Shown here in pieces: positions 1,837 to 22,978 of a DNA stretch of 64,000 nt. Source of the stretch: a virus. Its lineage: Duplodnaviria > Caudoviricetes. The position numbers and the translations under genes are program-made. The DNA is taken from IMG/VR virus record IMGVR_UViG_3300028591_000073, positions 192,001-256,000 of that record; one strand, given 5' to 3'. Every line of letters starts with the position of its first letter. The first letter of the stretch is position 1. The notes below the pieces were generated by a model that saw only the letters and a program-made list of their open reading frames with translations, did not search any database and was not told the origin of the DNA.

Positions 1837-2137
1837 CTCCCGGACAGATTCCGTGTTTTACACGATCTGCAAGTTCAGATCTCTTCGCATTGTTCCAACG
1901 ATCCACACTTGAAGTTAGGTAACCGGTTATGCGCGCTATTTTAATAAATGGAACGTTTGTCTCATCTTTGTTCTTGTATTCATATTTCATAGAAACATCT
2001 TCAGTACTATCCTCATTCTTTTCAATTGTAAGTTCGATATCAGTAAATTCTACATTTGGAAATTTCTCTTTTAAATAATCCACGTAGATCTTCTTTTCTT
2101 CAGGAGACATCGCTCCACCTTTCACTGTAATATTCAT
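1820..2137 (-). CDS. stand-alone NrdD C-terminal (glycyl-radical) domain protein
   Basis: RITGYL...RWNNAKRSELADRVKH matches the extreme C-terminus of class III ribonucleotide reductase; only 105 aa. Confidence 0.75.
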   Translation of the reverse strand: MNITVKGGAMSPEEKKIYVDYLKEKFPNVEFTDIELTIEKNEDSTEDVSMKYEYKNKDETNVPFIKIARITGYLTSSVDRWNNAKRSELADRVKHGICPGDDTNE

Positions 2138-2150
2138 ATTAAAACCTCAT

Positions 2151-2176
2151 TTCATATATATATCATTAATATGATA
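2151..2176 (+). promoter_or_regulatory. putative phage early promoter motif, copy 1
   Basis: TTCATATATATATCATTAATATGATA; near-identical motif precedes 8 accessory islands. Confidence 0.7.
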
Positions 2177-2286
2177 GACATCACGATGGTCATGTCTATC
2201 AACCAACTGAGATCCACACCTCGGTTGGTTAAACAACCGTTTTGATCATCAACAGTCAAAAATATTTTCTTAGGAGGTTTTTAATT

Positions 2287-3174
2287 ATGCTGAAAAATGT
2301 CAGATTCGCTGAAGTTAAACTTAAGGACATTGAAAGTGGTGTTCCATTCAAAGTATACCATTGTCGTGTCGGGAAAGATTATGATATCTTTACAGAAAAG
2401 ATGGGGGTGTTTGAAGGGGTACCAATGAAGATTCAACTGACCATCAATTACACCAAGACATCTTATCATTCAGATGAAGAAGCTAAGATGGAGACGCATT
2501 TTCTCATTCGAGATTTTTATGCCGTATTCAGTATCGGGGAAGAGGAAATAGAAATGAGATGGGATATGGATGATTTCTTATCAGTCCAAGCTCGAAATAA
2601 AATACTCATGAACAGTATATATGGGATATCTGGAATACAGAGTGTGTTATCTGCGAAACATTTGTTGCCACCACAAAGAAGAAATGGTCCGTTGACATTT
2701 GATGGAGAACTTACAATGAACAATATCATGTATTCTTTTTGGAAAATTGCAACTCTCATGCATTTATCACTGATTGGAGACTGCTCTTGGCTTTACAGCA
2801 TTTCAAACCCTGCAGGAATCTTCGCTGCTATTCATTCAGCATTTACAATCTTTCCGATTGCAAAGAAGTGTTATATGAGTATTGTTAAATCTAATGAGAG
2901 AATTGCAATAAATCAATTAACACAAGTCATTGAATATTGTCAAACGAATGATTCATTTAATAACAGACCCATTGAAGCAGTCGTTGCACCAATGGTGAGT
3001 GCTATCCATGAATGTGGTAAACCAGAATTATTCCGAAACATTCCCATGGAAGTTCGAACAATACTGGTACCGCATTTCAATAAAGGAAACCAGCATGAGA
3101 TTGTTTCCGAACTCAATCATTATACAGATGGACGGTATCATGATTTAAATGACATGTCCATGTGGGAACTTTAA
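2287..3174 (+). CDS. paralogous family protein 1 (conserved C-terminal module ending WEL)
   Basis: RBS TAGGAGG; C-terminus ELFRNIPMEVRT...HEIVSELNHY...MWEL shared with neighbours. Confidence 0.8.
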   Translation: MLKNVRFAEVKLKDIESGVPFKVYHCRVGKDYDIFTEKMGVFEGVPMKIQLTINYTKTSYHSDEEAKMETHFLIRDFYAVFSIGEEEIEMRWDMDDFLSVQARNKILMNSIYGISGIQSVLSAKHLLPPQRRNGPLTFDGELTMNNIMYSFWKIATLMHLSLIGDCSWLYSISNPAGIFAAIHSAFTIFPIAKKCYMSIVKSNERIAINQLTQVIEYCQTNDSFNNRPIEAVVAPMVSAIHECGKPELFRNIPMEVRTILVPHFNKGNQHEIVSELNHYTDGRYHDLNDMSMWEL

Positions 3175-3191
3175 TCAAGGAGGAAATTGTT

Positions 3192-4058
3192 ATGAAAATT
3201 ATCAGTGATATGAAAGTGAAAGACTTTCCGTCAGGAGTGTCTTTTAAGGCATACTATCAAGAACCAAGACTGACACATCAGGGTGGTTTGTTATTCGATG
3301 AACCATATACCGGCTCATTGGAACGTAATTCGGTTCCGAAACTGGATGCATCATATGGAACTTGGTTTCCAGTAAGGACAAAAGAGACCTATCATTATCG
3401 TGCGGATGATGTGATGGAATGTGACATCACCATCACGTACCATGAAATTGATGATGACTTGGAAAACCAGCATAAATTGGATGATGATGCAGAAATAGTG
3501 ATTGATAAAATCGATGTCTCGATGATGAGACATGGTATAAAAATCACAAATCATTATTATGGGACGCATGATGATAATGAAGTGTTTAGTCGCCATAGTA
3601 GGATAATCGATTGGTTCTCTTCGAAGGTTAAACTTCAATATTTTCCTTTGATCAGTGTAATTGGTAAATGTTATCATATACTGTGTGGTGAGTTCACAGA
3701 ACTTGTATACACTGAACCAGCATTGAATCAATTGTGTGACTGCGAAATGATTATTAGAGGTATTGCATCATCGGAATCAACACCTTGGTTGGCAGAGACA
3801 CTTCTCAGTCGTTATTGTGAACTAACTGAGAAAAGAAACGATATATCACAAGTGGCATTCTCCCAGACGACATTGTTCATGCTTATATATGAACTCGTGA
3901 ATCAAAACCGGGGAGAGGTATTACGTATAATACCATTGACTCTGAGAACACATCTGATTGCAAGGTTTAATGAAGCTGGGAAACATGCAATTGTCGCAGC
4001 GTTAAACCATTACCACAAAGGGGATTACAGAAATCCCGGAAAGGATTTGGTATTATGA
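3192..4058 (+). CDS. paralogous family protein 2
   Basis: RBS AAGGAGG; C-terminus LRIIPLTLRT...AGKHAIVAALNHYHKGDY. Confidence 0.8.
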   Translation: MKIISDMKVKDFPSGVSFKAYYQEPRLTHQGGLLFDEPYTGSLERNSVPKLDASYGTWFPVRTKETYHYRADDVMECDITITYHEIDDDLENQHKLDDDAEIVIDKIDVSMMRHGIKITNHYYGTHDDNEVFSRHSRIIDWFSSKVKLQYFPLISVIGKCYHILCGEFTELVYTEPALNQLCDCEMIIRGIASSESTPWLAETLLSRYCELTEKRNDISQVAFSQTTLFMLIYELVNQNRGEVLRIIPLTLRTHLIARFNEAGKHAIVAALNHYHKGDYRNPGKDLVL

Positions 4059-4843
4059 AAATAGAAATGAGTATAAATGGTGGTGCTTTCGTGGAATTAA
4101 CATTGGATGATTTCCTGAATGCAAAACTAGAAACAGGCACCCCAGAGATTAGATTTGTTAGAAACGATACACATGTTGGATGTCATAAATATCCAAGTGT
4201 TGCAGTGACCGCAATCATCGATTGTATACCGAGACAACGTCCTATATTCAGTATTTACCATCATCTTCTTGATTACGATGCCGATTACTCAGTATATCAA
4301 CTCACAAGATTTGATTTATCAATCCATCATATCAATAATCCAAAATATGATATAGAGGTTCAGATGGAAAGACAGGCTTTAGCTGATATTGAGATTTTCA
4401 ATGATACCAATTTATTGGATACAATGATTTATCCAATCTTAGATATAGTAAATCAAATCATTAATTTCAATTGGATGGTACTTGAAAACTATCGGCTTGG
4501 TTTCTCTGATATGTTCAACATTTTCAAAGCAATTCTGATTGGAATCGCAAAGAATCCAAATCTAGCCAGTCAGATTGAGAATATGTTGATTGCATTGTCA
4601 TTGGAACCAAAGGAGAAATATTTACAAGAGAAATATGTGCGGTTATGCATTGCCATTTGTGAAACAATTCATACATCGACACAAGAGTATGAGATTTACA
4701 AATGCATCTCAACTTCCATGAGAGCAAAACTCATTGAGCATTTCCTCAATGAAAATAAACCGGATATCGTGGCACAATTGATACACTTCTCTAATCCGGT
4801 TAAAATTGAAGACATTCCCAATGATGACAGATGGAGTTTATAA
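4055..4843 (+). CDS. paralogous family protein 3 (divergent)
   Basis: ATGA overlap with previous gene; C-terminus MRAKLIEHF...IVAQLIHF...RWSL. Confidence 0.75.
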   Translation: MKIEMSINGGAFVELTLDDFLNAKLETGTPEIRFVRNDTHVGCHKYPSVAVTAIIDCIPRQRPIFSIYHHLLDYDADYSVYQLTRFDLSIHHINNPKYDIEVQMERQALADIEIFNDTNLLDTMIYPILDIVNQIINFNWMVLENYRLGFSDMFNIFKAILIGIAKNPNLASQIENMLIALSLEPKEKYLQEKYVRLCIAICETIHTSTQEYEIYKCISTSMRAKLIEHFLNENKPDIVAQLIHFSNPVKIEDIPNDDRWSL

Positions 4844-4868
4844 TTAATTAATTATAGGAGGATTCATT

Positions 4869-5888
4869 ATGGAAAAAATAGAAGATTATTTAGTAGAAAC
4901 GACGATTGGTGACATGAAGGATGGAAGACTGATTCGCATGTATTATCAAGGGAAAGGATATGCGGATGACAAAGAATGGTCTTTAATGACACAACCAGTA
5001 TTTTCCAGACCGATTGATGGAGAGGTAGAAGCACCGGTTGTCAACAACAGCACTTATGGTGCTTATGTGTTTTCACCTACTCCGGTGGTACATCCAACGG
5101 TACCAATTCGTTTTGATAAAAAGGATGCAATAGGATATGACATCTATATCAACATCGATAACTGTGATTTGGATTCTGACAGATTTAATATCAACAAAAT
5201 TGGCTTCGGTATCCACAGTGATGGTATCACATTAAGTGGTTCATTGCATCCTATCGAAGGTCCTGTAGTGTCTGATAATCCTATAGAAAATATGCGTAAT
5301 TTGTGGATATATGGTATTAGTGACCCGCTCACTGATGATTTGTATGGATTATATGGTCATAACTGTCATGTTCGGAGGATACCAATCGTGTTCAAACTGA
5401 TTGAATCAGCATGGAATTTCCTTAAAGGTGATAAACCAATCTGGAAATTCGACAAATCTTTCATGAGCAACGATACAGATGAGCAAGCTTGGAAAATGGT
5501 AGTCACAATGATTTTGAATTCGGAATATACAATGCTTCATCAATCTTTGATGAATGATTATATTGCCGAAGCAGAAAATTACTTTCATAGGATGGAAGAA
5601 AATGAGAAAGATATTAAATCATTGGCCGGTGGCAATACCATTGCCATACCCATGCATAATTACCCGTATTCGTATTTTCAGGATGCATTTGTATTCATGT
5701 CAGATTTCTTTGATATCTTGACCGAATGTAACAAGTTGGAATTATTACGCCAGATTCCATTGGAAACGCGGTCAAAGATGATTCAATTATTTAACAAAGC
5801 TGGAAAACATGAATTAGTGGCTTTATTAAACCACTACCACAAAGGTGACTATAGGTCACTTGATACAATGGAGGGGTGGGAGTTATAA
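4869..5888 (+). CDS. paralogous family protein 4
   Basis: RBS AGGAGG; near-identical N- and C-termini to 6001..6930. Confidence 0.85.
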   Translation: MEKIEDYLVETTIGDMKDGRLIRMYYQGKGYADDKEWSLMTQPVFSRPIDGEVEAPVVNNSTYGAYVFSPTPVVHPTVPIRFDKKDAIGYDIYINIDNCDLDSDRFNINKIGFGIHSDGITLSGSLHPIEGPVVSDNPIENMRNLWIYGISDPLTDDLYGLYGHNCHVRRIPIVFKLIESAWNFLKGDKPIWKFDKSFMSNDTDEQAWKMVVTMILNSEYTMLHQSLMNDYIAEAENYFHRMEENEKDIKSLAGGNTIAIPMHNYPYSYFQDAFVFMSDFFDILTECNKLELLRQIPLETRSKMIQLFNKAGKHELVALLNHYHKGDYRSLDTMEGWEL

Positions 5889-6000
5889 AAGTAGAGCACA
5901 ATGGCCGGGCTAAGCCCGGCCTACATACTCTGTCGTATCTATCAATAAATAATAACAGATAGAGTTTATAATTAATTAATTTATTATAGGAGGATTCATT

Positions 6001-6930
6001 ATGGAAAAAATAGAAGATTATTTAGTAGAAACTACAATTAGTGACATAAAGGATGGGTCACCAGTACGTGTTTATTATCAAGGAAATGGAAATGTAGATG
6101 ACAAAAAAGCGTCTTTAATAACAAACCCAATATTTTCCGAACCAATTGATGGAGAAGTAGAAGCTCTGTGTAACTTCCCCGACAATTACGTCTATTGTGT
6201 TTTTCCATCTCGTTTAGAACATCCAAAGGCGCCGATTCGTTTTGATAAAAAGGATGCATTAGGATGTGACATCTATATCAACATCGATAACTGTGATTTG
6301 GATTCTGACAGCTTTAATATCAACGAATTCAGATTCATCATCTATAGTGATGATATCACATTAAGTTGTTCATTATATCCCGCCACAGTTCCTAAATTCA
6401 TTAATGATTTGGATTGGAAATTATATGGCCCTAACCATCGTGTTCGAAATATACCAATCGTATTAGATTTAATTAAATCAGTATGGAATTTCCTTAAAGG
6501 TGATAAACCAATCTGGGAAGTGGAAGACAAATATTCTATCACCACCGAGACAAATATACAAGTTTGGAATACGGTGATTAAAATGATTCTAAATTCAGAA
6601 TACGCCATCCTTCATCAAAGATTGATGGGTGATTATATTACTGAAGTAGAACATTTGGTTGATAATATGGAAGACTATACTAGAGACTGTATCAATTCCA
6701 TGTTCAAACGTAAACCGTTGGATTATGATTTCAATTATACAGTTACCCTCATTGATATCTTGAAAGAATGTGATAAGTTGGAATTATTACGTCAGATTCC
6801 ATTGGATACACGTTCAAAGATGATTCAATTGTTTAATAAAACTGGAAAACATGAAGTGGTAGCTTTATTAAATCATTACCACAAAGGAGACTATAAGTCT
6901 CTTGATACAATGGAAGGTTGGGAGTTATAA
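6001..6930 (+). CDS. paralogous family protein 5 (recent tandem duplicate of protein 4)
   Basis: Same MEKIEDYLVETTI start and SLDTMEGWEL end; duplicated 5' UTR and 3' hairpin. Confidence 0.85.
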   Translation: MEKIEDYLVETTISDIKDGSPVRVYYQGNGNVDDKKASLITNPIFSEPIDGEVEALCNFPDNYVYCVFPSRLEHPKAPIRFDKKDALGCDIYINIDNCDLDSDSFNINEFRFIIYSDDITLSCSLYPATVPKFINDLDWKLYGPNHRVRNIPIVLDLIKSVWNFLKGDKPIWEVEDKYSITTETNIQVWNTVIKMILNSEYAILHQRLMGDYITEVEHLVDNMEDYTRDCINSMFKRKPLDYDFNYTVTLIDILKECDKLELLRQIPLDTRSKMIQLFNKTGKHEVVALLNHYHKGDYKSLDTMEGWEL

Positions 6931-7179
6931 AGCTTATAAAGTTAGAGTACAACGGCCGGGCTTAGCCCGGCCTACATACTCTGTCGTATCTATCAATAAA
7001 TAATGAAAGGATGTCTTTTTTATATCACCGATGAGGAAAGCGAGGAATAACTCATCGGTGATACTATTTAATGGAGGTCGTACCTATGCCAAGTACGCAA
7101 GTAACAATGCAGTTGGTGAATACATTGTACTCTACCTATATGTTATCCAACACATACAATTATTTCTTTATTCTACACA

Positions 7180-19232: not shown

Positions 19233-19757
19233 ATGACAATTTATCAGCTGAAACAATTAGGTTATCATAACCTGAGCTCAAAATCCATGAGCTCGAATAT
19301 GGTAAATGTTTGTAATCAATATGGAATTACCATAATGATTGCAAAACGTAAAGACCTGCGTGCAGCAGGTATCGATGTGCAACACGACCAGAATCACCAG
19401 GTCGCTGCTGCAAACATCGAGGATCGTTTAATCGTCCTTAACCAGGACGGTTTGAACGATCTTGGTCTGCGTCTTCATGAGGCGTGGGCAGTGATATGGC
19501 ATGAGATCGGCCACATCGTTCTTCACACAGAAAATGAACAGGAAGCCGATCTCTATGCCATCAAAAATCTTAAGGCCGAACTCGGAAACGAGGAAGGCAT
19601 CAATGCATACTTTGGTGATATTTGTAAGACGTACATCTATCATATGATGCGGCGTCACAAGGAATCATCTAAATATGCATTTAGATTGAAACATCAGAAA
19701 GCCAATTACAAAAGATTCTTGGACGAAGTTCCAATCCCGAGTAATTGTGATTTCTGA
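19233..19757 (+). CDS. zincin-type metallopeptidase-like protein (ImmA/IrrE-like)
   Basis: WHEIGH (HEXXH) followed by EQEADLYA. Confidence 0.65.
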   Translation: MTIYQLKQLGYHNLSSKSMSSNMVNVCNQYGITIMIAKRKDLRAAGIDVQHDQNHQVAAANIEDRLIVLNQDGLNDLGLRLHEAWAVIWHEIGHIVLHTENEQEADLYAIKNLKAELGNEEGINAYFGDICKTYIYHMMRRHKESSKYAFRLKHQKANYKRFLDEVPIPSNCDF

Positions 19758-19801: not shown

Positions 19802-21730
19802 TTATTGTTGTGAAATTCTAGTATGTCGATTGACAATTGTATGGAATGCGTTTGTCATGGATTCACCCATGTTATAGAATATATTTTCATAATAGGATGC
19901 AGCCAATGCCAATCTGGTCACTAAACGAGCTGCAGAATTAGAACGGTATTTATCAACACCTGTACATTGTGCAATGTAATCAAACATGGTTTGGTTATTC
20001 AAGAAATATGCCGGTTTGTTCATTGGTGTTGTTACCATCGTATGACATAAGTCTGTAATTTGCATTGTAACATTAATTGACAAAGGATATCCATTCACAC
20101 TTAATGCATTTCCTTCCGGATTTTTTTGTACACTAACAGATGTGATCATTCCCAATCTCGTTCCCCACACACCTGGGATGCTGCATTGAATGAGTGGCGG
20201 ATATTGATATGCTGCAGCGGAGTGCTCTGACATCTTTGGTAGACACATTCCCAAGATGTGAAACAAGGGAACAAGTACCTCTGTAAGATAAGTATACGGA
20301 TCACCACGTGAAGCACGAAGTTTTACGGAAACGGACATGCCGGATGTAGCCGAAGCTTCGGTGAAAATCTGTGGATAGATGGTATGGTCGCCCAAATAAG
20401 AACGAGCCATACTTGAAAATGCAGAAGCCGTGAATCGACCAACACCAAATGTCAATGCTTGCATGACTCCTTCTGCTGCATTAATTGCAGAACCGGCTAA
20501 TGACACAACTTGGTCATCAATAACATTTGCGGATGAGTTTGTAATAAATGCCAACTCAGCACCAATTGCCGATCCTTGTTTCATGACGCTGGAATAGATC
20601 TGTGATTCACCAACATTGTTTGTGTATGATTCTGATTCTGTTACAGTATCAATCATAAAGGAAACATATTGATTTGTTTCTCCGGCCATATTATCAATAT
20701 TGGTTGCAGTTCCAACACCCTTACCGTCCATATCGGATGTGATATAACGATAATTTGTCCACACATCATCTGCACCAGATTCATATCGAACATGCATGCC
20801 GATTGGATATAATTGGTTGCCGATACGAACACGTGCACTCTGTAATCCAAGCATCACGACAGCTGCATTAATCATCATTTTTACATTATTGATGTACGTC
20901 TGCCAGTCTGCTTCAAAGGTGTAAAATGGTTGATTTACGGATAAAGAATGAATCAATGGAACACCGAGACCAACCAATCGAGAATCGAAGTTTTCCATGA
21001 ATTCATCTGCACCACGGGTAATTTTATCCCATGCAAGTGATTTGATATCCGATGCCAAATCATTTCCATAATCACCATAATCGCCATATCGACTGGATAA
21101 TTCTGCTTGGTCAACATAAGTAATACGATTGGAACCTCCAACACCGTTGTCTTCTTCTGTATTTGTGATGCTTTGTGCTGTGGAAGCCACACCAGCTAAT
21201 GCATCTTGTACAGCACCAACACCTGTTGCGGTGACTTCACCACTATCTGATGTGGTTTCTGTTGCTTCTTCCGTGGTTGTTTCTGAAGTGGTTTCTAATG
21301 GAATCTTTTCAGCAGCCAATGCTTGTTCGATCAAGGTGTCCATTTCTGCAGTGGCTATTTTGGATGGTGCACCTGCTGGAGCAACTGCATCACCTGATGT
21401 GTTAAAAACATCATATCGATCCAATGCCACTTGGTATGTTTTGAATTGACGAATGATATCTGCAATGGAATTATAACCGCCTGTAAATAAAGCTCTACCA
21501 ACAAAGAAATTGGCAACTTGTGCTGGTTTTAATACATTATTTCGATACCAATCTCCGGTAGCTCCTTCATTCTGACCATCCATTGATGAATCAATTCTCA
21601 TATCACATAAATCGGATAATTGTGGAGGTGATCCAAATAAACGTGGAGAATAGTTTGGTTCTATTGGATTATTTTGAACAAATGATTCTTTTGATTTCGC
21701 TTGTCCTAATCCAGGTAAAAAGAATGACAT
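19802..21730 (-). CDS. virion structural protein (baseplate/tail-tube-initiator-like)
   Basis: 642 aa; C-terminal PPLIQCSIPG...GMITSVSV...GYPLSINVTMQITDL resembles myophage tube-initiator/baseplate proteins. Confidence 0.5.
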   Translation of the reverse strand: MSFFLPGLGQAKSKESFVQNNPIEPNYSPRLFGSPPQLSDLCDMRIDSSMDGQNEGATGDWYRNNVLKPAQVANFFVGRALFTGGYNSIADIIRQFKTYQVALDRYDVFNTSGDAVAPAGAPSKIATAEMDTLIEQALAAEKIPLETTSETTTEEATETTSDSGEVTATGVGAVQDALAGVASTAQSITNTEEDNGVGGSNRITYVDQAELSSRYGDYGDYGNDLASDIKSLAWDKITRGADEFMENFDSRLVGLGVPLIHSLSVNQPFYTFEADWQTYINNVKMMINAAVVMLGLQSARVRIGNQLYPIGMHVRYESGADDVWTNYRYITSDMDGKGVGTATNIDNMAGETNQYVSFMIDTVTESESYTNNVGESQIYSSVMKQGSAIGAELAFITNSSANVIDDQVVSLAGSAINAAEGVMQALTFGVGRFTASAFSSMARSYLGDHTIYPQIFTEASATSGMSVSVKLRASRGDPYTYLTEVLVPLFHILGMCLPKMSEHSAAAYQYPPLIQCSIPGVWGTRLGMITSVSVQKNPEGNALSVNGYPLSINVTMQITDLCHTMVTTPMNKPAYFLNNQTMFDYIAQCTGVDKYRSNSAARLVTRLALAASYYENIFYNMGESMTNAFHTIVNRHTRISQQ

Positions 21731-21978: not shown

Positions 21979-22022
21979 ATATGATAACCCGCCGAAAGGC
22001 GGGTATTCTATTATTCTCTCTT

Positions 22023-22048
22023 TTCATATAGATATCATTAATATGATA
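22023..22048 (+). promoter_or_regulatory. putative early promoter motif, copy 4
   Basis: TTCATATAGATATCATTAATATGATA preceded by TTCTATTATT. Confidence 0.7.
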
Positions 22049-22092
22049 TAGAAATATATCAAAATAAATTTATTTATAAGGAGGCTTTCAAT

Positions 22093-22905
22093 ATGAAAGT
22101 TAGAACTGGAAATTTCGAATTTGTGACAAACATTAATGACGACATCCGTTATGACACATTGAACAGGTTGTGCAATATCTCCAATGAGAATGTGGAGCTT
22201 GTGTACGGCATCGATTACGAAAAGCATGCCGCACACCATTACAACAAGCTCAGCCATGTTCATAATGGTATGAAATATTGGGTAGACGCTATCATGCCAG
22301 AGCATGCGGATGTCAAAACCGGGTTTGCCATTGATGTTCTTCATAAGGGAAATGATACATGGACAAAATCAAGTATTTCAATTTTCCCGATTGAAGATGG
22401 TGTGAAAAGAGAGAAACCAGTTGTTCAATTTGAGCAAACAAAGGGGTTCGAAAATCTTTTCCATGCAAGAAATGGCATGGTGCTCTCAACATGGGTACAT
22501 GAAACAATCAGATGCCCTGTGGTCCAGTACATTGTTGGTGAGATCAGTTTCTCTGATATCGTTGAGAAGTACATGCTGTACTCAAACATCCCGTGGGATG
22601 GCATGACCACTCTGTTCTCGATGATTACAGAAGAACAGAGAAGACAACTCATCAACGAGCATACGGATACAGATAACAAATGGCATGTGACAGATGTCAT
22701 CTATCAAATTGAACTCCTCGCAAATGCAGAGTTAATGAACAACATGCATGACTATGACGAGTTCAAAAAGAAGTTTAAAAGAGAAGATATCCTTTCCGCA
22801 ATCAGAGATTGCAATCGGAAGGGAAATCACGAACTTCAAATCTTCCTCAATCACTGTGTCCCGCAGGAAACTGAGGAAGATCGGAGAAAGAGATGGGAGC
22901 TGTAA
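22093..22905 (+). CDS. distant member of the C-terminal WEL family
   Basis: RBS AAGGAGG; ends NRKGNHELQIFLNHC...RWEL. Confidence 0.75.
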   Translation: MKVRTGNFEFVTNINDDIRYDTLNRLCNISNENVELVYGIDYEKHAAHHYNKLSHVHNGMKYWVDAIMPEHADVKTGFAIDVLHKGNDTWTKSSISIFPIEDGVKREKPVVQFEQTKGFENLFHARNGMVLSTWVHETIRCPVVQYIVGEISFSDIVEKYMLYSNIPWDGMTTLFSMITEEQRRQLINEHTDTDNKWHVTDVIYQIELLANAELMNNMHDYDEFKKKFKREDILSAIRDCNRKGNHELQIFLNHCVPQETEEDRRKRWEL

Positions 22906-22978
22906 TATGCTCCTGTCTCTATCCCTTCGGGGAATACATGATATCCATCAATATTTTATTTTTCTATTATTTTAATTT

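Follow-up and report, generated by a model that had tools for sequence, protein, structure and literature searches.

What purpose could be served by a C-terminus that stays almost constant in a row of proteins whose other parts vary? This question is raised by five tandem genes (A to E) and a distant sixth (F) in the 64,000-nucleotide (nt) window analyzed here, which is the whole stretch from base 192,001 to base 256,000 of a 294,548-bp IMG/VR record (G+C content 37.6%, CheckV completeness 100%). The record represents an uncultured jumbo phage of ~295 kb, whose genome codes for a primase, a DnaB-like helicase, a GroEL-like chaperonin, an SbcC-like protein and virion proteins. A first reading made from the sequence alone (the sequence-only reading) had proposed that the six products carry one C-terminal module as a constant unit fused to variable domains. 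Our analysis found that this module and the tail behind it, mostly W-E-L and referred to below as the WEL unit, belong to a family larger than the six genes. The unit has the appearance of a common address or docking tag of an undescribed kind, and the tentative answer is that it may serve as a docking handle for a panel of accessory proteins that are co-regulated and diversify.

The homology of the module was first established within the array. The tails were exactly those given by the sequence-only reading (MWEL, DLVL, RWSL, GWEL, GWEL and RWEL for A to F), and the N-terminal motif D-x3-G-x3-[KR]-x-Y, claimed for four of the proteins, was present in A, B, D and E. Pairwise BLASTP among these four gave E values of 1e-8 to 1e-15, with the alignments limited to the last 45-80 residues. 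A hidden Markov model (HMM) of the last 60 amino acids (aa) of A to E was then run against the 3066 stop-to-stop open reading frames (ORFs) that made up the genome set for the HMM searches. All five proteins were retrieved at E 3e-28 to 1.5e-34, and the next match in the genome reached only E 0.4. Gene C was marginal by BLASTP (E 6e-4 with A), and the profile of A, B, D and E (ABDE) aligned with it by hhalign at a probability (Prob) of 94.7 across 106 columns of the helical half; judged by these scores, gene C is a weaker but real member of the family. The orthologues gathered numbered 21 for the D/E type, 11 for A, 25 for C, four for B and nine for F.

The profile alignments also showed that the likeness between A, B, D and E was not restricted to the C-terminus. 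A and B were aligned over residues 7-286 and 4-281 (Prob 98.4), and B and D/E over residues 1-280 and 1-329 (Prob 99.6). As the homology of these four proteins extends from end to end, the array consists of duplicates that diverged unevenly, in which conservation is highest towards the two ends, and unrelated bodies fused to a tag were ruled out within the array. Gene C has the helical half of these proteins but not their N-terminus; for neither C nor F did hhalign (P 0.017-0.12) support an N-terminal relationship to them. The idea of a constant module fused to variable domains was thus upheld for the module, which is constant and under purifying selection (see below), but not for the bodies in the array, which are homologous rather than unrelated.

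The position of gene F was harder to settle, and it was reached by way of five further genes (G to K) outside the window. F was missed by the A-E HMM (E=53), and its link to D was limited to a BLASTP E value of 0.05 and hhalign Prob of 14-25. When C-termini were counted genome-wide, nine ORFs ended in WEL, compared with 0.02 expected from amino-acid frequencies (~400-fold enrichment), and nine of these nine contained the module. The wider pattern W-x-L closed 11 of the 452 ORFs of at least 100 aa, with 0.4 expected. The C-termini of G to K resemble that of F (...FNEAGK[HY]E.QLF..., with [DK][RK]WEL as the last residues), and hhalign of F against H gave Prob 81 (P 1e-5). The other profile pairs scored Prob 39 (H with IJK), 37 (G with H), 24 (ABDE with H) and 14 (ABDE with F), and all alignments of this network landed on the equivalent C-terminal position. 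The first non-self match of each HMM was always a WEL protein, namely H for IJK (1e-3), F for GHIJK (4e-3) and D for FGHIJK (0.012).

As a control for circularity, the last five residues were cut from the profiles and the database alike. The five best non-self matches of the tail-less F+H profile were still G (1.3e-5), D (8.9e-4), J (1e-3), E (4.9e-3) and I (0.017); tail-less FGHIJK found D and E first, and tail-less ABCDE found H first. The tails were also constant in orthologues (RWEL in A, RW[SRT]L in C, GWEL in D/E, RWEL in H, KWEL in K, and DL[VLI]L in B), and RWEL of F was invariant in nine orthologues down to 47% identity. The tail-less matches, the F-H alignment and the invariant tail together give indirect support for F as a genuine distant member. 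On these profile comparisons the family is a superfamily of 11 genes at five loci, with two clades, A-E and F-K, in which F bridges the array to G-K. The claim of five tandem ORFs and a distant sixth with a common module was therefore borne out and extended.

The unit common to the family is a helical platform (...F/C-N-x-x-G-x-[HY]-E-x-x-L-hydrophobic...), followed by a Pro/acid-rich linker and a free C-terminus, which is [KRG]-W-[ES]-L in 10 members (A itself has MWEL) and D-L-V-L in B. The spacing from [HY]-E to the C-terminus was 22-27 residues throughout. All members are acidic, soluble proteins (isoelectric point 4.4-6.0) and show no hydrophobic N-terminal stretch as judged by eye. The coordinates of the genes and of the associated elements are listed in the table.

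Table. Genes of the WEL family and associated elements (positions are those of the window unless marked "genome", which refers to the whole record).
Feature	Position	Strand	Description
Promoter-like element upstream of A	2116-2190	+	core TATCATTAATATGATA at 2161-2176
Gene A	2287-3174	+	295 aa; tail MWEL, orthologues RWEL; C-terminal module ~3004-3171
Gene B	3192-4058	+	288 aa; tail DLVL; ATG behind AAGGAGG; module ~3888-4055
Gene C	4055-4843	+	262 aa; tail RWSL, orthologues RW[SRT]L
Gene D	4869-5888	+	339 aa; tail GWEL; module ~5718-5885
GC hairpin GGCCGGGCTAAGCCCGGCC	5903-5921	+	3' of D; near-identical copy at 6954-6972, 3' of E, loop base differs
Gene E	6001-6930	+	309 aa; tail GWEL
Hairpin, then promoter-like element upstream of F	21987-22062	+	terminator-like hairpin 21987-22004; core 22033-22048
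Gene F	22093-22905	+	270 aa; tail RWEL; module ~22735-22902
Copies of the element in the window	2161, 7394, 19172, 22033, 22989, 55638, 56555	+	
Gene G	genome 105,847-106,500		WEL tail; outside the window
Gene H	genome 124,187-124,918		tail RWEL; outside the window
Gene I	genome 275,065-275,826		WEL tail; tandem trio I-J-K
Gene J	genome 275,840-276,913		WEL tail; tandem trio I-J-K
Gene K	genome 276,904-277,746		tail KWEL; tandem trio I-J-K

The D/E pair was used to determine how selection is distributed along the proteins. E and D are 57% identical over the full length, and gene E is a recent duplicate of gene D. In the module (residues 292-331 of D) the ratio of non-synonymous to synonymous substitution rates (dN/dS) was 0.06 with a synonymous rate (dS) of 0.68, and in segments 102-180 and 221-268 dN/dS was ~1.0, so that these middle segments appear near-neutral or diversifying. 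Given the dS of 0.68, the conservation of the module reflects purifying selection on the protein, and recent gene conversion was ruled out as its cause. The last ~55 residues were near-invariant among the D/E orthologues. Codons within the W-E-L tripeptide varied (both for Glu, four for Leu), which indicated that the constraint acts at the protein level and ruled out a nucleotide-level cause for the conserved sequence next to the stop codon.

The array was kept on at least nine related contigs, and signs of recombination were found among the relatives. In the protein P0004, the N-terminal half shared 87% identity with D and 59% with E, whereas columns 200-310 of the D/E alignment shared 55% with D and 89% with E. 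In one relative (L009:1-1470) a C-like gene comes immediately after a D-type gene. The D/E chimera and the altered gene order are evidence that the arrays recombine and rearrange. Within the array itself, the ATG of gene C overlaps the stop codon of gene B. The hairpin behind D was found again behind E, together with ~45 nt beyond it that were duplicated nearly unchanged, and the 3' flank therefore belonged to the duplication unit. The hairpin lacks the T-run expected behind a canonical intrinsic terminator and is not classed as one.

A different pattern was observed between F and H, whose DNA is alike in the flanks alone. The 88 nt upstream, comprising the terminator and the promoter element, are common to both, and a segment of 78 nt over the stop codon and ~60 nt downstream (22888-22963 for F, genome 124904-124980 for H) showed 86% identity. 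Between these flanks the coding bodies are unalignable, and the comparison reads as if bodies had been swapped between conserved cassette ends.

Regulation was considered next, because the sequence-only reading held that both loci follow an early promoter. The identical 16-mer TATCATTAATATGATA stands at 2161 and 22033 within an element of ~60 bp, in the order of a GC hairpin, TTCTATTATTT, ~20 nt, TAT[AC]ATTAATATGATA and then TAGAAATATATCA. The claim stood in part, as the same element, a putative promoter of presumed early timing, precedes both loci. Matches in a sigma-70 scan were no commoner than in shuffled sequence, and the call of a sigma-70 type promoter was dropped. With up to two mismatches, the core 16-mer was found at 26 sites of the genome, ~19 of them with the full context. 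A, F, G and H each have the element 44-110 nt upstream. For I-J-K, a copy with two mismatches lies 2.7 kb upstream, with four small ORFs between. The other genes behind the element are small ORFans, one coiled-coil protein and two weak M78/ImmA-like metalloproteases. Because the element also precedes such accessory genes, the WEL family is probably co-regulated with them, and its expression would presumably be early. The core also contains an inverted repeat, TATCAT..ATGATA, and could alternatively act as an operator. The two metalloprotease-like genes are at 19233-19757 of the window and at genome 113268-113795 (phrog_87, E 1e-4 and 8e-4); the former also matched Peptidase_M78 (ImmA/IrrE-like) at E 0.008.

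The structure of the proteins was then predicted with AlphaFold2 (AF2). The model of B, based on an alignment of 37 sequences, reached a predicted local distance difference test (pLDDT) of 78.9 and a predicted template modelling score of 0.77. Residues 1-125 were modelled as an N-terminal beta domain and residues 150-275 as a helical domain, with a tail of lower confidence behind them; A, B, D and E are predicted to share this two-domain fold of an N-terminal beta domain and a helical-repeat domain. In the model, the module is the end of the helical-repeat domain, and the tail follows the confident helical domain with low pLDDT. The model of D from D/E orthologues alone was poor (pLDDT 49). 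The helical half of B and D could be superposed on VHS, ENTH, CID and MIF4G domains over 100-118 residues (Z 5-6.7). These values are at the background for helical bundles, the identity was 5-14% and sequence support was missing; the resemblance is one of fold type, not of family membership. A metal-site or catalytic reading of H-E...N-H-Y-H was dropped, the residues being missing in C and in the F-K clade.

Database searches showed the family to be confined to a narrow lineage. For the 11 members, the best match in Pfam-A, PHROGs v4 and NCBIfam had E 0.005 or worse, below the cut-offs, and the best sequence profile match in the PDB had E 0.2. No match was obtained by blastn and tblastn in 50,697 GenBank phage records, and no usable match in the ESM Atlas. 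The IMG/VR scan for D found nothing, and the scans of that database yielded only one 148-kb fragment, carrying orthologues of H and K; a metagenome scan yielded only four short contigs. The C-terminal profile, run against 1.84 billion protein representatives, retrieved ~10 true clusters; each of them came from the same lineage, and the new body types P0025, P0027 and P0029 were among them. The remaining five matches were repeat proteins and were judged spurious by inspection.

Taken together, these findings can be arranged into a mechanism, although it must remain tentative. In the WEL unit, the conserved helical platform and the flexible linker would hold out a hydrophobic-x-Leu C-terminus. 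This motif would tie co-expressed, fast-diversifying accessory proteins to one partner, of phage or host origin, and each paralogue would find its own target through its variable body. Eleven tagged proteins with unalignable bodies fit the idea of a common handle. Docking, a single partner, early timing and a role in host takeover or counter-defence are all presumptive, and the adaptors to a protease or ATPase and the anti-defence panel of the sequence-only reading are equally conjectural. A stronger form is more doubtful, namely that the [KR]-W-E-L end and the platform constitute a new phage addressing code, read by one receptor for all 11 proteins. Such a receptor would deliver the tagged proteins, or the targets of their bodies, to one place or fate, and it may be a phage-built compartment, a phage AAA ATPase or a host machine. 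The sole classical AAA ATPase of the phage is coded at genome 286,084-287,346 (PF00004, 1e-16) and has a 228-aa N-terminal domain; to name it as the common machine for the tagged proteins is pure speculation.

Several results weigh against a docking handle. The links between the A-E and F-K clades score weakly (Prob 14-25; E 1e-3 to 0.02), and they stay weak because very few orthologues of G to K were gathered. Gene B has no tryptophan in its tail. The genome profile search found no PDZ, S41 or ClpP protein coded by the phage, and these searches revealed neither a partner nor a receptor domain nor a known fold. Foldseek returned nothing at E<=0.001 for the models of D and B, no search being aimed at the N-terminal beta domain by itself, and the fold searches with both models gave generic helical repeats (NOT1, VHS, ENTH, TOG and others) at Z 5-8.5, which is rated by the fold-search tool as background for helical proteins. 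Moreover, as the module ends a larger helical domain and the homology of A, B, D and E spans the whole protein, the conservation of the module may reflect a folding or oligomerization core instead of a docking site.

This last point leads to the rival that survives best, which is nevertheless somewhat unlikely: the C-terminal helices and the tail would be structurally constrained or oligomerizing, with no external partner in common, and the tail could bind the helical-repeat domain of its own or another subunit. The continuity of the module with the larger helical domain, 106 columns of which are alignable between ABDE and C, agrees with such self-association, as do the full-length homology in the array and the likeness of the helical half to peptide-binding alpha-solenoids (VHS/ENTH/CID/MIF4G-like), although the last is at background Z of 5-6.7 only. 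A mere core would not easily account for the many conserved positions that are polar or charged (R, N, K, G, H, E and Y-H-K-G-D-Y), nor for a tail beyond a low-pLDDT linker. In addition, F to K carry the unit on unalignable bodies, which is unexpected for the core of a single fold.

The tail might instead be a signal for turnover, a degron through which a host AAA+ protease or a phage AAA ATPase clears all members at one fixed stage of infection. C-terminal degrons (e.g. MuA, ssrA-like tags) control several phage early proteins, and a hydrophobic-x-Leu-COOH end on a flexible linker, members co-regulated behind one element and one classical AAA ATPase in the genome would all suit this explanation. 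It is nonetheless quite unlikely: by inspection W-E-L is unlike the known C-motifs of ClpX (LAA-like, MuA-like), the ~45 conserved structured residues upstream are left unexplained, and no ClpP, Lon or S41 protease is coded by the phage.

Very unlikely is a tag for virion loading, by which the unit would dock proteins to the capsid interior, the portal or the scaffold for packaging and ejection along with the DNA, comparable to encapsulin cargo peptides or to the C-terminal coat-binding helix-loop-helix of the P22 scaffolding protein. A short conserved C-terminal motif behind a flexible linker on diverse proteins has the architecture of such a tag, and F adjoins virion structural genes, e.g. 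19802-21730 (phrog_20401), but the promoter-like element is shared with small ORFans, not with structural genes. Finally, that A-E and F-K are two unrelated families with a WEL end and helix pattern produced by convergence or chance is highly improbable, for the weak direct clade scores in its favor (the A-E HMM at E 53 for F; Prob 14 for ABDE with F and 0.1 with IJK) are opposed by top non-self matches that were always WEL proteins, tail removed or not, by the equal spacing from [HY]-E to the terminus, by the upstream element common to both clades and by the ~400-fold enrichment of WEL.

The docking handle was also compared with known systems, among which the closest analogues by architecture appear to be the poxvirus ankyrin (ANK)/PRANC proteins and the terminal cargo tags, with membership supported for neither. 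The poxvirus proteins (F-box-like, PF09372) form a tandem family in which a C-terminal helical module docks the paralogues to the host SCF ligase. Tandem arrays, fast-diverging bodies and a short conserved helical C-terminal module are common to both systems; the phage family differs in that the tripeptide itself is conserved, and the two are related in neither sequence nor fold. No PRANC or F-box match was found at the C-terminus in Pfam at E<=1. Bacteria have no ubiquitin system.

The capsid targeting sequence of phage T4 and the encapsulin peptides likewise place one short terminal tag on dissimilar proteins. However, the T4 tag is N-terminal and cleaved off, whereas the WEL unit is C-terminal, and the N-termini of the WEL family have the beta-strand motif D-x3-G-x3-[KR]-x-Y or are mutually unrelated, showing no tag of the T4 type. 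The encapsulin cargo peptide is alike in architecture only, as a C-terminal motif after a flexible (here low-pLDDT) linker; the motif differs, its peptides being Gly/Ser/Leu-rich and coded beside the shell gene, whereas the WEL tag has a helical platform of ~45 aa. No shell gene was identified beside any WEL locus, and in contrast to T4 or encapsulin cargo the WEL genes are probably co-regulated with accessory ORFans rather than with head genes.

Short hydrophobic C-termini are also known as ligands. All 11 tails (WEL in nine members, WSL in one and LVL in one) fit the hydrophobic-x-Leu-COOH pattern of class II PDZ ligands after acidic/Pro-rich flexible sequence, and the general hydrophobic-x-hydrophobic form as well. 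A search of the phage genome for the PDZ receptor domain PF13180 gave no match, with positive controls and with the host not covered. Bacterial PDZ proteins are mostly located outside the cytoplasm, whereas the WEL proteins show no signal peptide by eye. The C-terminus of single-stranded DNA-binding protein (SSB-Ct, DDDIPF) and the clamp-binding motif QL[SD]LF are similar as hydrophobic C-terminal docking sites, but the WEL tails are off both consensuses. In particular, the beta-clamp motif (QL[SD]LF/QLxLxL) was absent from the tails, which have no Gln and have Trp at -3, and DLVL of B is only loosely similar.

If the WEL unit is a docking tag, 11 co-regulated proteins, corresponding to ~3-4% of the phage genes, would act via one partner, and a single pull-down would open the whole block of ORFans. 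It would be a C-terminal counterpart to the N-terminal head-loading tags of T4-like phages, and it could be used as a portable tag to recruit proteins in infected cells. The uneven divergence (0.06 in the module, ~1 in the middle segments) and the D/E chimeras in relatives make the family a candidate arms-race locus.

Immediately downstream of the I-J-K trio, two genes with recognizable domains were observed, one for a RibD_C-like reductase (PF01872, 5e-18; L013:6180-6971) and one for a calcineurin-like phosphoesterase (PF00149, 1.6e-5; L013:7107-7805).

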